Numbered from the stretch's first letter, positions 8,904 through 56,862 are shown. The stretch: 64,000 nucleotides of DNA from an uncultured Marinicella sp. (GCA_964352015.1 CAYGPU010000002.1:46419-110418), one strand, 5' to 3'. The notes: generated by a model not told the origin, from the sequence alone. Numbers and translations are program-made.

Positions 8904-8933
8904 TGGAACCAAAGAATGGTGCCCGGGAATGGA
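8904..8933. repeat. Proximal att site overlapping the tRNA-Leu 3' end
   Basis: Partner of 2866-2894; covers the last 17 nt of the tRNA and 13 nt downstream. Confidence 0.85.
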
Positions 8934-9003
8934 ATCGAACCATCACGGTATTTCTACCGGGGGATTTTAAGTCCCCTGCGTCTACCAATTTCGCCACCCG
9001 GGC
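8917..9003 (-). tRNA. tRNA-Leu(TAA)
   Basis: GCCCGGG acceptor stem, anticodon loop CTTAAAA, long variable arm, GGTTCGATTCC T-arm, encoded CCA. Confidence 0.97.
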
Positions 9004-9258
9004 TTTTTTGCTGGCTCATGCTTCGTGAGTTCAGCAATCTCTGCGTCGAAACTTCCTTAAGCACATGCGTGCATGCAGAAGTTGTCTCCTTGATCTTGCT
9101 AACCTCACTGTGCATGAGCCTAGCAAAAAACTTTCCTTTTGATGATTGCTTATTGAAAGCATCATATCCTGCGTCGAAACTTCCTTAAGCACATGCGTGC
9201 ATGCAGAAGTTGTCTCCTTGTCTCTGCTAATCTCAAAAAACCCTGAGCTTAGCAAAAA
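9004..9258. repeat. Composite repeat: two identical 52-bp cores (9041-9092, 9169-9220) with three related hairpins (9004-9037 inverted, 9096-9130, 9225-9258)
   Basis: Core ctgcgtcgaaacttccttaagcacatgcgtgcatgcagaagttgtctccttg occurs twice; hairpin consensus ttgct-a-x-ctca...tgag-x-tagcaaaaa. Confidence 0.85.
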
Positions 9259-9388
9259 TTCCTTTGGCTGTTTTCAATTGAATCTTGAGATTCTGTTGAA
9301 AACGGCTTTGTATTTTAGTTTAAAAATATGTGCTGTAAAAGGTTTTAATTCTTTTAGTTCACATGTTAATTAAACGCCATTTAAAACA

Positions 9389-9462
9389 TGGAGGCTGAAC
9401 CCGGAATCGAACCGGGGTACACGGATTTGCAATCCGCTGCATCACCACTCTGCCATCCAGCC
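9389..9462 (-). tRNA. tRNA-Cys(GCA)
   Basis: GGCTGGA acceptor stem, anticodon loop TTGCAAA, GGTTCGATTCC, CCA end. Confidence 0.97.
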
Positions 9463-9566
9463 AGCGCCAGTTTTAAAGGGTCTTTCTTTCGAAAGTTGGG
9501 TTATTCTCGCTAATTATGAGGTGCAAATCAAGCATCTTTGCACATCTAGTAATCAGTAGAAAATAA

Positions 9567-9598
9567 AAAGGGCTGTAAATGTTGTGTTTACAGCCCTT
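9567..9598. other. Stem-loop in the tRNA-Gly/tRNA-Cys spacer
   Basis: aagggctgtaaa-tgttgtg-tttacagccctt, a 12-bp perfect stem. Confidence 0.6.
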
Positions 9599-9606
9599 CA
9601 AAAATC

Positions 9607-9681
9607 TGGAGCGGGAAAGGAGGCTCGAACTCCCGACCCCAACCTTGGCAAGGTTGTGCTCTACCACTGAGCTATTCCCGC
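9607..9681 (-). tRNA. tRNA-Gly(GCC)
   Basis: GCGGGAA acceptor stem, anticodon loop TTGCCAA, CCA end. The pgsA-Gly-Cys-Leu order matches E. coli pgsA-glyW-cysT-leuZ. Confidence 0.97.
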
Positions 9682-51702: not shown

Positions 51703-52143
51703 ATGAAAACAATCGCGTGTCTTATTTTGCTGTGCCTCCTCAGTTTCCAAGTTGAAGCTGAAGCTGATGATGGTGTCAGTCTGAATGATGCGGTCAACCA
51801 GGTGAAGACCGAAGGCAGGGTGTTGTCTGCTAAAACCATCAATGGACGGCATGAAATCAAAATATTGACTCCCAACGGGACAGTTAAAACCATCAACAAA
51901 AAAGCGGCTAACCCGAATATAAAAATCAAACCTCCAAGACCAGAGTTCTACAACAACGGTGGACAGTCAATGCGTGATCGCAAACAGAATCCAGCGATTC
52001 CAGATCGTTTTAACCGCCAACAAAAAGTCATGAAGCTCAATCAGCGTCAACTGAATAGGAGCACATTGGATTTGCAGCCCATGACCAAAGACAGAAAAGC
52101 CAAGAGCAGAAAACCAAACAATAAAAAAGATAAAGACAATTAA
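51703..52143 (+). CDS. Secreted PepSY-like protein
   Basis: Signal peptide, SLNDAVNQV...GRVLSA...IKILTPNG; precedes a two-component pair. Confidence 0.7.
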   Translation: MKTIACLILLCLLSFQVEAEADDGVSLNDAVNQVKTEGRVLSAKTINGRHEIKILTPNGTVKTINKKAANPNIKIKPPRPEFYNNGGQSMRDRKQNPAIPDRFNRQQKVMKLNQRQLNRSTLDLQPMTKDRKAKSRKPNNKKDKDN

Positions 52144-54226: not shown

Positions 54227-54988
54227 ATGAAAAAACTTTTAGACATCATGCAAAAACTGCGTGACCCAGATTGCGGCTGTCCTTGGGATATAGAACAAAC
54301 ATTTTCCTCTGTAGCTCCTTATACCATTGAAGAGGCCTATGAAGTGGCTGATGCCATAGAGCAGCAAGACATGATTGGGCTGCAGTTAGAGCTCGGAGAC
54401 TTGTTGTTTCAAGTGGTTTTTCATGCGCAAATGGCCAATGAAGCAGGACATTTTGATTTCAATGATGTGGTCAACACAGTCAGTGATAAGATGATCAGCA
54501 GACATCCTCACGTGTTTGAACCCAACTCGCCGCGTTTAACAGCCGAACAACAGACTGTCGCATGGGAACAAGCTAAAAGTAAGGATAAAGACAGTGTGCT
54601 TGATGGGATAGCGAACAACCTACCTGAACTGCTCAAAGCGGTTAAGTTGACCAAATATGCAGCCGTTACTGGCTTTGACTGGCCAGAGGTCAGCCATGTA
54701 TTCGATAAATTGGATGAAGAAACTGCTGAACTTAAAGAAGCCATTGGCGAACAAAATGCTGAACACATTGAAGAGGAGTTGGGTGATTTATTGTTCGTAG
54801 TGGCTAATTTAGCCAGACACTTGAAAGTTGATCCTTCATCGGCATTGCGTAAAGCAAACCATAAATTTGAAAGGCGGTTCAGGGCTGTTGAAAAGTTAGC
54901 TAAGGCACGTCAGCCTAAAAAAGAAAACTTTGACCTGAAGGTTCTGGACGAACTCTGGAATCAGGTCAAAGTTGAACTCAAACAATAA
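54227..54988 (+). CDS. mazG: Nucleoside triphosphate pyrophosphohydrolase MazG
   Basis: GCPWD.EQT, EEAYEV, ELGDLLFQVVFH and a second MazG domain. Confidence 0.96.
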   Translation: MKKLLDIMQKLRDPDCGCPWDIEQTFSSVAPYTIEEAYEVADAIEQQDMIGLQLELGDLLFQVVFHAQMANEAGHFDFNDVVNTVSDKMISRHPHVFEPNSPRLTAEQQTVAWEQAKSKDKDSVLDGIANNLPELLKAVKLTKYAAVTGFDWPEVSHVFDKLDEETAELKEAIGEQNAEHIEEELGDLLFVVANLARHLKVDPSSALRKANHKFERRFRAVEKLAKARQPKKENFDLKVLDELWNQVKVELKQ

Positions 54989-55006
54989 AATGTATAATCA
55001 GAATGA

Positions 55007-55276
55007 AGTATGCCTAAAGTGTGTGTGTGTGAAAGACATACCATCTTCGTCAGTTAAGAATTAGGTATGCCTAAAGTGTGTGTGTGAAAGGCATACCATA
55101 TTCGTTACATTTTCAAGTTCTTATAATGAGCTTTAAATAAAATATCGCGGCTCTGGTTCGTTATTATTACTCCCTCTTCTTCTTGAATTGAAACAACTCA
55201 TAGGTTGTTCCTTCTTCAACAGTCATGTGACAAATAACTTCCATGTGTGTGTAGTGTGTAATGAAGTTATTTGTCA
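55007..55276 (-). ncRNA. Candidate structured 3'-trailer RNA: three stem-loops with CA-rich loops
   Basis: Hairpins at 55007-55042, 55064-55097 (9-bp stems, (CA)5-6 loops) and 55228-55276 (14-bp perfect stem, ACACACTACACACAC loop). Stem variants are G.U-compatible only on the minus strand. Confidence 0.45.
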
Positions 55277-55291
55277 TCATTGACATATGGT

Positions 55292-55993
55292 TTATTGACT
55301 TGATTCTGCAGCACAAGTCAATAATTGATCGTTAATGTAAATTTCTATATCAGCTAGATTGGTGTTTGCGTTCGCTGTGTTTTGAATGCCGAAAGCCAAA
55401 CCATTTTTACAATTTAATTCAAGCTGTATGGTGGTCGTTGTATTCACTTCTTGCTCGACGAGTAAGCCGCCACCAGTTCCTTCTCCAGTTGCATCAGTTG
55501 ATTCACCACCTGTACCTTCACCAGTTGCATCAGTTGATTCGCCACCTGTGCCTTCACCCGTAGCATCAGTTGACCCGCCACCTGTTCCTTCACCCGTAGC
55601 ATCAGTTGACCCACCACCTGTTCCTTCACCAGTGGCATTTGGAGTAGACAATTCAAGTAAGCTGTTTTTTGCAATCAATTCAATGTTTCCTTGAATGACG
55701 AAACCCTCGACAAAAACAGCTTCATTATTTAACGTATATATGCCTTTTACATATTGTTGATCGGTAGTATATAAACGGATTTCTGCAGCAAACAGGGTGG
55801 GTGCAAAAAGACTGAAAAGTAAAGAAATCATTAACAATCTGAACCTGTTCAACTGACTAATCCCTGTACCTTCAGTTTCGGCTGATCTAGAAATGCCTGT
55901 GCCTTCTGTTTCGGCTAGAGATTGAACCATGCAGGTTCCTTCGCTTTCCGCTATATGAGAGATACCAGTACCTTCAGTTTCTGCAAATTTCAT
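55292..55993 (-). CDS. Secreted protein with AETEGTG leader repeats and an ATGEGTGG[G/E]STD tandem array
   Basis: GGAG RBS upstream of ATG 55993; four leader motifs precede RFRLLMISLLFSLFAPTLFA|A; five internal units; two Cys in the C-terminal part. Confidence 0.85.
   Translation of the reverse strand: MKFAETEGTGISHIAESEGTCMVQSLAETEGTGISRSAETEGTGISQLNRFRLLMISLLFSLFAPTLFAAEIRLYTTDQQYVKGIYTLNNEAVFVEGFVIQGNIELIAKNSLLELSTPNATGEGTGGGSTDATGEGTGGGSTDATGEGTGGESTDATGEGTGGESTDATGEGTGGGLLVEQEVNTTTTIQLELNCKNGLAFGIQNTANANTNLADIEIYINDQLLTCAAESSQ
55466..55636. repeat. 36-bp coding tandem repeat (~4.75 units)
   Basis: Unit ccacctgt.ccttcacc.gt.gcatcagttga..c. on the + strand. Confidence 0.95.
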
Positions 55994-56025
55994 TTTATGC
56001 TCCAGATTTATTATTAAGTGTTATG

Positions 56026-56862
56026 TTATTCTTCAAAGTAAAACAGACCTAAACCAATTCTTGATTCATGTTTTGGTACCTGAATCGATTCATATTTTTT
56101 TTCAATGGCCTCAAACTCAGGATAAAAGGTGTTGTAATAATGATGTTTTAATAATTCATTCACTTCAATTCTGAATTGTTTTTTGTGTTCTTTAGGGATT
56201 TTTATAGAAAATAAATTACTTTGAAAGTTAGTGTCTTGCTCATGTTCAAAGTTATGTTCAATGGTATTGGTTATTCGGTTAATGGTGTTTGCTGCAACTT
56301 CTATTTTTGTTGGATTGGTTGAGCTTTTCGGAATGAATGTTCTGTTTATCAGATAAACTTTGTCGCCTCTGACTTCAACACACTTTGAAAGAATTAAAGC
56401 ATCTAAAACCGGACCGTGACTGATGTTTTTACCAAATTTCTGTGTCAAAGTTTCAAAAGAAAGGCCTTTGCCACTTCTTTTAAGGGGTACTGGTTTGCCC
56501 TTTTTTTCACAGAAAGGAGGGTGAGAGTACCAGTGATCTAAAATATTGCCTTCTCTGGAGCGATTCTGTTCAATCCAATCTATTTCAGTTGAGTTGCTTT
56601 TGAGTATTTTTGAAACCTCTCTTCGATCCAGTCCAGTCTGATAAGCAATCGATGAGATCTTTCCTCGACTGTTTTCCGATTGCTCGTTGATGTATTTTTC
56701 CGCTTCCTCAATAAACAGTTCTTTCACCAAGGAGTGGAATGAATTGAACTCAACCTTTTGTTTCACTAATATCCTTACCAATGGTTGCAAGCATGTTTTA
56801 ATAAAACCAAGCCAATAGACATTGAATGACAAGTTGTTAGTATTGGGTAATATTTGTTTCAT
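56026..56862 (-). CDS. DUF6502-like protein with an N-terminal HTH-like segment
   Basis: LQPLVRIL...F..LVKELFIEEA...ISSIAYQTGLDRREV...L..W...P...G.P..L...G...SFE.L... pattern. Family name is from memory. Confidence 0.72.
   Translation of the reverse strand: MKQILPNTNNLSFNVYWLGFIKTCLQPLVRILVKQKVEFNSFHSLVKELFIEEAEKYINEQSENSRGKISSIAYQTGLDRREVSKILKSNSTEIDWIEQNRSREGNILDHWYSHPPFCEKKGKPVPLKRSGKGLSFETLTQKFGKNISHGPVLDALILSKCVEVRGDKVYLINRTFIPKSSTNPTKIEVAANTINRITNTIEHNFEHEQDTNFQSNLFSIKIPKEHKKQFRIEVNELLKHHYYNTFYPEFEAIEKKYESIQVPKHESRIGLGLFYFEE

Follow-up and report, generated by a model that had tools for sequence, protein, structure and literature searches.

The locus described here lies in DNA of an uncultured Marinicella sp. 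(GCA_964352015.1 CAYGPU010000002.1:46419-110418). The window, meaning the whole stretch analysed, is 64,000 nt long and gives all coordinates below; these 64 kb plus flanks are the sequence covered from a genome of roughly 4 Mb. A 303-nt spacer (54989-55291) separates two convergent genes, a gene for an EGTG-repeat protein on the minus strand (55292-55993, 233 aa) and mazG on the plus strand (54227-54988), which encodes a nucleoside triphosphate pyrophosphohydrolase (PF03819, E 4.7e-44). The repeat protein has four N-terminal copies of AETEGTGIS, a hydrophobic segment between the repeat blocks (LLMISLLFSLFAPTLFA) and five copies of STDATGEGTGG, each encoded by 36 nt (55468-55647, minus strand); no Pfam or NCBIfam family matched it. 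On the minus strand, genes for a DUF6502 protein (56026-56862), an EAL-domain protein, a NUDIX protein and SecA lie 5' of the repeat-protein gene, and a two-component system is encoded 5' of mazG on the plus strand. The spacer contains four hairpins. A first-pass annotation had described them as lying downstream of the EGTG gene, a position that is correct and incomplete, as the region is the entire spacer between the convergent EGTG gene and mazG. Judging from sequence comparison, the spacer very probably encodes a real, selected, structured RNA of the minus strand. We moderately favour the fuller reading that this RNA is borne in a 3' untranslated region (UTR) and is multivalent through hairpin loops of CA repeats, with pairing to GU-rich RNA as its most probable activity, though confidence in that ligand is low.

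Read in operon sense, the spacer begins with a long hairpin, H1 (55222-55284, minus strand), whose first base is 7 nt past the stop codon of the repeat-protein gene. Its stem of 14 perfect base pairs (55263-55276 with 55228-55241) carries a 21-nt apical loop, AUUACACACUACACACACAUG (55242-55262), and a basal extension, GUCA..UGAC, reaches 55222-55284, its 3' strand being a conserved CAUGAC. H2 (55190-55211, minus strand) is an 8-bp hairpin (GGAACAAC/GUUGUUUC) with a single G.U pair, G55210.U55191, and with outer pairs that extend to about 55185-55219. A mostly single-stranded core follows (55117-55187, minus strand), consisting of UUCAAGAAGAAGAGGGAG-UAAUAAUAACGAAC-CAGAGC, an 18-nt AU loop and GCUCAUUAUAAGAAC; its purine/ARN-rich pattern is AAGAAGAGGGAG-UAAUAAUAA-CAGAGC. 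Within the core lie GAGGGAG (55170-55176), AAUAAUAA (55161-55168) and a mini-hairpin of GAGC (55150-55153) with GCUC (55128-55131). H3 is present twice. H3a (55064-55097, minus strand) has a 9-bp stem, GGUAUGCCU/AGGCAUACC, and the 16-nt loop UUCACACACACACUUU (55073-55088). H3b (55007-55042, minus strand) is its tandem duplicate at a spacing of 55-57 nt, with two wobble pairs and an 18-nt loop that has one CA more.

All four hairpins of the first-pass annotation were recovered where it had placed them, on the minus strand. Its claim that the two H3b substitutions form G.U pairs on this strand only was also confirmed: they yield U55036.G55013 and G55042.U55007, which become A.C mismatches if the plus strand is read. 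The G.U pair it had noted in H2 is G55210.U55191. The conserved purine-rich core, the terminator role of H3, a further hairpin (T2) inside mazG and the convergent-gene context go beyond what had been noticed before. The minus strand of the spacer folds at -68.1 kcal/mol (z = -4.3), a value equalled by none of 100 shuffled sequences; the plus strand reaches z = -2.6. The stems of H1, H2 and H3 would be expected to be paired, and the CA loops and the tract AAGAAGAGGGAGUAAUAAUAA unpaired. As the CA loops have no possible pairing within the RNA, they would be held out as unstructured single strands.

MazG and DUF6502 homologues plus the core DNA pattern led to 16 Marinicella loci in isolates, metagenome-assembled genomes (MAGs) and metagenomes, not counting the window or the identical copy of it in Logan. 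The nearest genomes are Marinicella (Marinicellaceae, Lysobacterales). The window's MazG shares 79% identity with its counterpart in a Marinicella MAG and 73-77% with those of M. meishanensis and M. litoralis, and biofilm metagenomes contain DNA near-identical to the window. The synteny of EAL protein, DUF6502 protein and repeat protein is conserved, and the spacer is homologous wherever this operon faces mazG, that is, in every syntenic Marinicella locus fetched (MazG identity 61-94%). Orthologues of the EGTG protein have SNSDGTG or ATDEGTGG repeats in place of those in the window. Several metagenome contigs terminate in or near the EGTG gene or the adjoining spacer.

The architecture of the window recurs in 13 further distinct Marinicella loci with MazG identities of 70-94%. 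In this main clade the order in operon sense is stop codon, H1, H2, core, H3 and a U-tract overlapping the mazG stop codon. H1 has the basal sequences GUC(U/A)AUG...CAUGAC, an AU-rich stem of 14-16 bp and the loop (U)UACACACACAC-U-ACACACAC. The core reads AAG.AGAGGGAG.AAUAAUAA..AAACAGAGC, an AU-rich loop and GCUCAUUA..GAAC, and the H3 loop is UUUCACACACAC-G-CACACACACUU. Three loci (L056, L058 and L066) have a single shorter hairpin in place of H1 and H2, with the loop AGCUCACACACA in L058. A distant clade is formed by M. rhabdoformis (L065) and GCA_030430025 (L083), with identities of 61% for MazG and 48% for DUF6502. These two loci are without the exact core. They have two or three long hairpins with basal sequences AACGUUUAUGGUGG/CCACCAUAAACG, separated by the linker AAGAAGAAGGUAGUAAC (motif AAGAAGAAGG); their apical loops are 16 nt long and contain CUCACACAC, and the fold has z = -6.3. 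In Marinicella sp. W31 (L064) synteny is broken, and its mazG is not adjoined by the element.

Covariation across these homologous loci bears out the hairpins. In a 15-sequence H3 alignment (A3), RNAalifold called 13 pairs, 11 of which were changed on both sides, with 47 compensatory cells. The cells were paired in 92.3% of cases, compared with 34-45% for slid partners, and 0 of 500 column shuffles reached this value. H1 has 21 pairs in the homologs, with 97.9% of cells paired and compensatory changes in 6 of the 21 pairs. These counts come from the hairpin-centred alignments A2 and A3; a MAFFT alignment of core plus H3 (A4) misaligns some 3' arms. H2 is found in every homolog that bears H1; its stems are of at least six unrelated sequences, and z lies between -1.7 and -4.9. 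G.U or U.G cells outnumber A.C or C.A cells by 33:3 in H3 and 9:1 in H1 (42 vs 4 in total), an excess that assigns the selected structure to the window's minus strand. This asymmetry agrees with the operon-sense strand proposed in the first-pass annotation. Its argument that the hairpins are not microsatellite noise also withstood comparison: the homologous loci keep the hairpins with different stems and the same type of CA loop. The core is under selection as well. Over 60 nt, it is 74-90% identical between the window and other species; in the same comparison the identity of mazG is 70-80% over the gene as a whole, with 48-59% at third codon positions.

The element occurs at a single locus type. 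A covariance model built on H3 (R1) scored 62.9 bits for H3a and 24 bits for H1 in the window, and 47-83 bits for H3 and 24-44 bits for H1 in the main-clade Marinicella loci searched; nothing was found elsewhere. A metagenome scan with the core pattern likewise gave matches at this locus type only. These results bear on the suggestion that the spacer acts at the DNA level, as a palindrome of the repetitive extragenic palindromic (REP) or bacterial interspersed mosaic element (BIME) kind, a cruciform or a recombination site, or else that it holds a small protein gene, the AUGACU open reading frame (ORF) MTVEEGTTYELFQFKKKRE. Palindromes in a spacer between convergent genes would fit a DNA element, and an ORF does start from the conserved CAUGACU in all H1-bearing loci. 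However, no second copy was found in the 64 kb, the flanks or the metagenome scan, there was no plasmid or phage match, and the wobble bias, being strand-specific, suggests a molecule that is single-stranded. From locus to locus the ORF ranges between 5 and 38 codons and changes its frame with respect to the core, and L056, L058 and L066 are without it; it lacks a Shine-Dalgarno (SD) sequence, and its AUG is buried in the basal stem of H1. Both forms of this explanation are considered highly improbable. Related candidates were rejected on similar grounds. A dispersed or mobile repeat (REP/BIME or miniature inverted-repeat transposable element) had no further copies in the window or flanks and none in plasmids or phages. 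A small protein gene or type I toxin conserved neither length nor frame and had no ribosome-binding site. An apparently conserved small ORF over H2 (MTV/IEE...FKKKRE in the window and L001/L054) is replaced in other loci by other frames or lengths, or by none.

Downstream of the core, H3 on its basal stem followed by a U-tract looks like a terminator, T1 (54979-55113, minus strand). The basal stem pairs AAAAUGUA (55106-55113) with UACAUUUU (54987-54994) and encloses both H3a and H3b. Its U-rich tail, AUUGUUUG (54979-54986), overlaps the mazG stop codon (54986-54988, plus strand). Minimum free energy folds have a basal stem under H3, then a run of 4-7 U, in every homolog. Seventy nt beyond T1 lies T2 (54917-54973, minus strand), a terminator-like hairpin antisense within the last 72 nt of mazG, so that the 3' end of mazG both overlaps the T1 tail and carries T2 on the opposite strand. 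T2 has a 13-bp stem (54961-54973 with 54926-54938), a structured 22-nt loop and then UUCUUUUUU (54917-54925). The layout of an intrinsic terminator, in which a stable stem runs straight into a U-tract of the transcribed strand, is seen at T1 in all homologs, and at T2. The alifold consensus for T2 comprises 16 pairs; in two loci CUGG/CCAG takes the place of CUGA/UCAG, and G.U pairs arise on the minus strand only. T2 is not found in the mazG ends of L064, L065 or other genera. The hairpin falls in the mazG codons for NFDLK...NQVKV, and the compensatory changes alter amino acids (K/N to D/D in L060). It would serve as a back-up terminator embedded antisense in the coding end of mazG.

The position of T2 also invites a cis-antisense explanation, in which convergent transcripts, overlapping because T2 lies within mazG and mazG transcripts have to run into H3, would couple mazG and the EAL-DUF6502 operon through (CA)n loops that kiss (UG)n loops and so initiate a duplex. 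T2, antisense to the final 72 nt of mazG, is specific to the element-bearing clade, no plus-strand terminator lies ahead of H3, the sole nearby (UG)n is the element's own complement, and one RNA contig covers the spacer plus 79 nt of mazG. Coupling of this kind is nevertheless unlikely. The structure is selected on the minus strand only, and its wobbles become A.C mismatches on the plus strand. The conserved core is left unexplained, the loops of 16-24 nt differ from usual kissing loops, which normally have 5-8 nt, and the mazG of L064 lies elsewhere without the element.

The CA loops themselves are quite likely functional recognition elements. An exact (CA)5 is absent outside the element in the 64-kb window, and in about 180 kb of Marinicella sequence nearly all runs of at least four CA lie inside the spacer. 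CA runs are always present and vary from 4 to 9 repeats between species, and each type of loop keeps a single interruption, a U in H1 and a G in H3. In one biofilm-metagenome DNA run (X4), a contig is shorter by 2 nt (one CA) at 55019, within the loop of H3b. The loss of one repeat indicates that slippage does occur, with length polymorphism of the microsatellite type within the source population.

Such variation is central to a more modest explanation, that the element is merely a compound bidirectional terminator or an mRNA-stabilising 3' structure, its CA tracts being neutral microsatellites and its core serving termination or cis stability. The element does lie between convergent genes, in every homolog U-tracts follow the H3 basal stem and T2, and CA-run length differs among species (4-9), between the window's two copies and within the population. 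Yet the CA runs are kept in H1 and H3 although silent sites in mazG are near saturation, and they are kept in the distant clade despite an otherwise unrelated spacer. The conserved single interruptions are unlike free slippage. Further, termination does not require a 70-nt single-stranded core that is better conserved than the coding DNA beside it, any terminator comes only after H1 and H2, and the wobble bias reflects selection on one strand only. We regard a role in termination or stability and nothing else as improbable.

CA-loop hairpins have also been multiplied. The number of CA loops per locus ranges from 2 to 5, with hairpin modules multiplied by tandem duplication. H3 is doubled in the window and, with diverged stems, in L066, and most other loci have a single H3; L065 and L083 have two or three repeat hairpins. 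In L069 (11069-12052), 3.4 copies of a 293-nt unit, 95% identical to one another, precede the canonical unit and bring the locus to five CA loops. In each of these units are the last 110 nt of the repeat-protein gene in degenerate form, the H1 CA-loop hairpin, an H2 that differs and a core that has diverged. What remains of the gene has become a neat hairpin followed by UUAUUU. An extended -10-like sequence, TGAAATAAT, is present in each extra L069 unit and was seen only there; the units may be independent paralogous small RNA (sRNA) genes. The conservation and multiplication of the CA loops together suggest multivalent recognition. Under the proposal favoured here, the number of loops would be raised by tandem duplication and the RNA would be a multivalent regulator.

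Sequences of the spacer are present in RNA libraries of several studies. On the 701-nt stretch examined, the sole contig of run X21 (library METATRANSCRIPTOMIC WGS, its kind guessed to be RNA) covers 55078-55250, and three oligo-dT sediment runs gave contigs as well. A 1573-nt contig of run X15 comprises the repeat gene, the spacer in a single-H3 form and 79 nt antisense to mazG; it ends at 54914, 3 nt beyond the U-run of T2. In run X23 (the L082 variant), a 1907-nt contig has a depth of 17 over the upstream coding sequence and the spacer, compared with 1-6.5 on mazG. Run X25 contains adapter-flanked fragments of 103-119 nt over the core, whose adapter orientation would indicate the strand only in combination with the library chemistry. 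Contigs and adapter-flanked fragments from RNA libraries often begin or end inside CA loops (L082 4475-4593; window 55078 and 55250). Such ends could reflect cleavage in the loops, or mere assembly breaks at length-variable repeats.

A consensus scan of 54500-56200 found no sigma-70-like promoter, and TTGACT/TATAAT-like strings noted by hand in that region are wrongly spaced. As H1 starts 7 nt past the stop codon and no promoter-like site precedes it, a 3' UTR is the simplest reading. The element lies on the sense strand between a stop codon and T1/T2, the position known for 3'UTR-derived sRNAs. The earlier suggestion of a 3'-derived structured RNA presenting CA loops remains the best reading, with metatranscriptome contigs joining the spacer to the upstream genes. 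The RNA would be made as the untranslated 3' end of the EAL-DUF6502-repeat-protein operon, and it may also be released from the operon transcript as a stable fragment. From 5' to 3', it would present H1 with a (CA)n-U-(CA)n loop, a variable H2, the core, H3 once or twice with the loop (CA)n(-G-(CA)n), T1 and T2.

What reads the loops is a more tentative matter. In the proposed mechanism the CA loops would, most probably, act as seeds or as a sponge by pairing with GU-rich RNA, and the ARN-rich core together with the terminator U-tail would form a platform for an Hfq-type chaperone, as in 3'UTR-derived sRNAs. CA- and ACA-rich sites have been described as the pairing sites of the GU-rich seed of GcvB (PMC3879156). 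Even so, RNA rich in GU is preferred to a protein or the ribosome as the ligand only with low confidence. Less probable than the favoured reading, and doubtful, is that the CA loops plus the SD-like GAGGGAG bind a protein or the ribosome, so that the RNA would be a sponge or decoy. Candidates for the bound factor are ribosomal protein S1 or the 30S subunit, an ACA-specific endoribonuclease of the MazF type (for which the RNA would be a decoy or a cleavage site), Hfq or another RNA-binding protein. E. coli MazF cleaves at ACA. A repeated dinucleotide motif, present several times per RNA and in duplicated copies, is typical of titrating RNAs, and several RNA contigs and an adapter-flanked fragment end within the H3 loop. 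CA repeats and ACA motifs have been reported to bind ribosomes and to enhance translation, with S1 as the suspected factor (PMC5934652, PMC3879156), and the effect of CA-rich sequences has been called 'puzzling' (PMC5934652). In addition, AAUAAUAA and the AAG repeats of the core resemble the AAN/A-rich Hfq sites of CrcZ (PMC6890931).

Against a protein platform, polymorphism in repeat length would likewise be expected to place contig ends in CA runs, and no start codon follows the SD-like element. Searches by tblastn with E. coli queries detected no mazF, hfq, csrA or proQ in the window and the Marinicella loci, which cover less than 3% of a genome; hfq, in particular, was not detected in the Marinicella loci fetched. 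In many of the alphaproteobacterial loci fetched with the MazG query (L007, L010, L014, L018 and others), hfq lies about 2 kb downstream of mazG (tblastn, E about 1e-20). A more specific version of a protein-binding role would make the RNA a sponge or decoy of a novel type, its valency evolving through tandem duplication, with the (CA)n loops as overlapping ACA arrays that titrate, or are cut by, an S1-, 30S- or MazF-type factor; this version is speculative and rather improbable.

The first-pass annotation had also raised the DUF6502-like protein as a possible ligand. Its AlphaFold model (predicted local distance difference test, pLDDT, 79.5; predicted template modelling score, pTM, 0.37) has a helix-turn-helix centred on the invariant 'IAYQTGLDRREVSKIL', and residues 136-171 form a winged helix. 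Foldseek ranked HetR, a DNA-binding regulator, first (E 4.9e-3, prob 0.99), ahead of SelB winged-helix and CRP/FNR domains; none reached E<=0.001. The protein has no sequence relative in the PDB. On this predicted structure it is probably a transcription factor adjoining an EAL phosphodiesterase. Adjacency is its only tie to the RNA, and the model leans towards DNA binding.

Among known systems, the element would count as a 3'UTR sRNA, or a regulatory RNA with several loops, whose loop code is new. Rfam 15 (4227 families) gave no match to the spacer at gathering thresholds in the window or five homologous loci, and a permissive scan (E<=10) only noise of 11-21 bits. Full-text literature searches found no description of a regulatory RNA in Marinicella or Marinicellaceae, or of this element. 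The nearest design analogue is sX13 of Xanthomonas, which has three stem-loops with C-rich apical loops (PMC3771888). The two share a host order, Lysobacterales, and, together with C-rich-loop sRNAs of the RsaE/RNAIII type, the use of several stable stem-loops with one short, pyrimidine-containing apical recognition motif (PMC3771888, PMC12195097). The 2-5 hairpins with CA loops resemble the roughly three stable stem-loops with the same apical motif of sX13, as an analogy of design only. The loop of the element is a (CA)n of 16-24 nt in place of CCCC, it lies in a 3' UTR between convergent genes and not at the polA locus, and it has an additional purine-rich core; there is neither sequence similarity nor an Rfam match.

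The 3'UTR sRNAs and sponges known from enterobacteria and vibrios (SroC, the sponge of GcvB; CpxQ; OppZ/CarZ) also lie at the 3' end of an operon and share its terminator, and CA/ACA-rich single strands serve there as pairing sites for the GU-rich GcvB seed (PMC3879156). The CA tracts of the element, in contrast, are much longer and lie inside hairpin loops, and no homology was detected. CrcZ/CrcY come to mind because the core sequence AAUAAUAA and (AAG)3 fit the AAnAAnAA or AAN-repeat sites of Hfq (PMC6890931). CrcZ has five or six A-rich tracts, whereas each element RNA has one or two: per unit there is one AAUAAUAA plus one (AAG)3-4 tract, short of the five or more AAnAAnAA sites of a CrcZ-type RNA, and the repeated unit of the element is a literal CACACA and not an ARN motif. 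CsrB/RsmZ, to which the first-pass annotation had likened the hairpins, are protein sponges that likewise have several hairpins, a loop motif that recurs and modules that vary in number. That comparison fails at the motif: GGA is found in no loop of the element (UUCACACAC..., AUUACACAC...), and a single AGGGA lies in the unpaired core. Intrinsic and bidirectional terminators share with the element the layout and position of T1 (basal stem plus U-tract) and T2 (13-bp stem plus UUCUUUUUU). They are usually short GC hairpins, whereas the element has loops of 16-24 nt, internal loops and a total length of 80-135 nt, and T2 lies within the coding region of the opposite strand.

Several observations weigh against the proposal of a multivalent 3'UTR RNA that pairs with GU-rich RNA. 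No (UG)n partner was found in the 64-kb window or its flanks except the element's own complement, and complements of the purine core occurred at chance level only, with no target found. A role of Hfq is suggested solely by motif resemblance. The alignments are small (12-15 sequences) with phylogenetically related members, and the covariation in H1 comes mostly from the window's own divergent stem. A consensus terminator scan calls neither T1 nor T2, whose 16-24-nt loops are atypical of intrinsic terminators and exceed the short loops (3-8 nt) that the scan's consensus requires. The RNA contigs are unstranded and may include DNA carry-over, and their ends in CA runs are explicable by length polymorphism in place of genuine RNA ends.

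Two further features of the neighbourhood were noted. A 146-aa ORF (51703-52143, plus strand), directly 5' of the response-regulator gene, had no Pfam or NCBIfam match, and a gene of 133-147 aa was called at its position in all Marinicella loci. A cluster of tRNA genes, Leu(taa), Cys(gca) and Gly(gcc), lies at 8917-9681 on the minus strand.

Hairpin loops made of dinucleotide repeats, selected across a genus while their stems covary, are unusual. If the loops are a recognition code, the element would be a compact natural system for finding what reads CA/ACA single strands in bacteria. Two aspects are of general interest: a terminator hairpin kept by compensatory changes within the coding end of an opposing gene, and an RNA whose valency grows through tandem duplication. 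Should the less probable decoy version hold, an ACA-decoy RNA would couple a cyclic di-GMP-related operon facing mazG to global translation or to an RNA-cleavage stress response in Marinicella.

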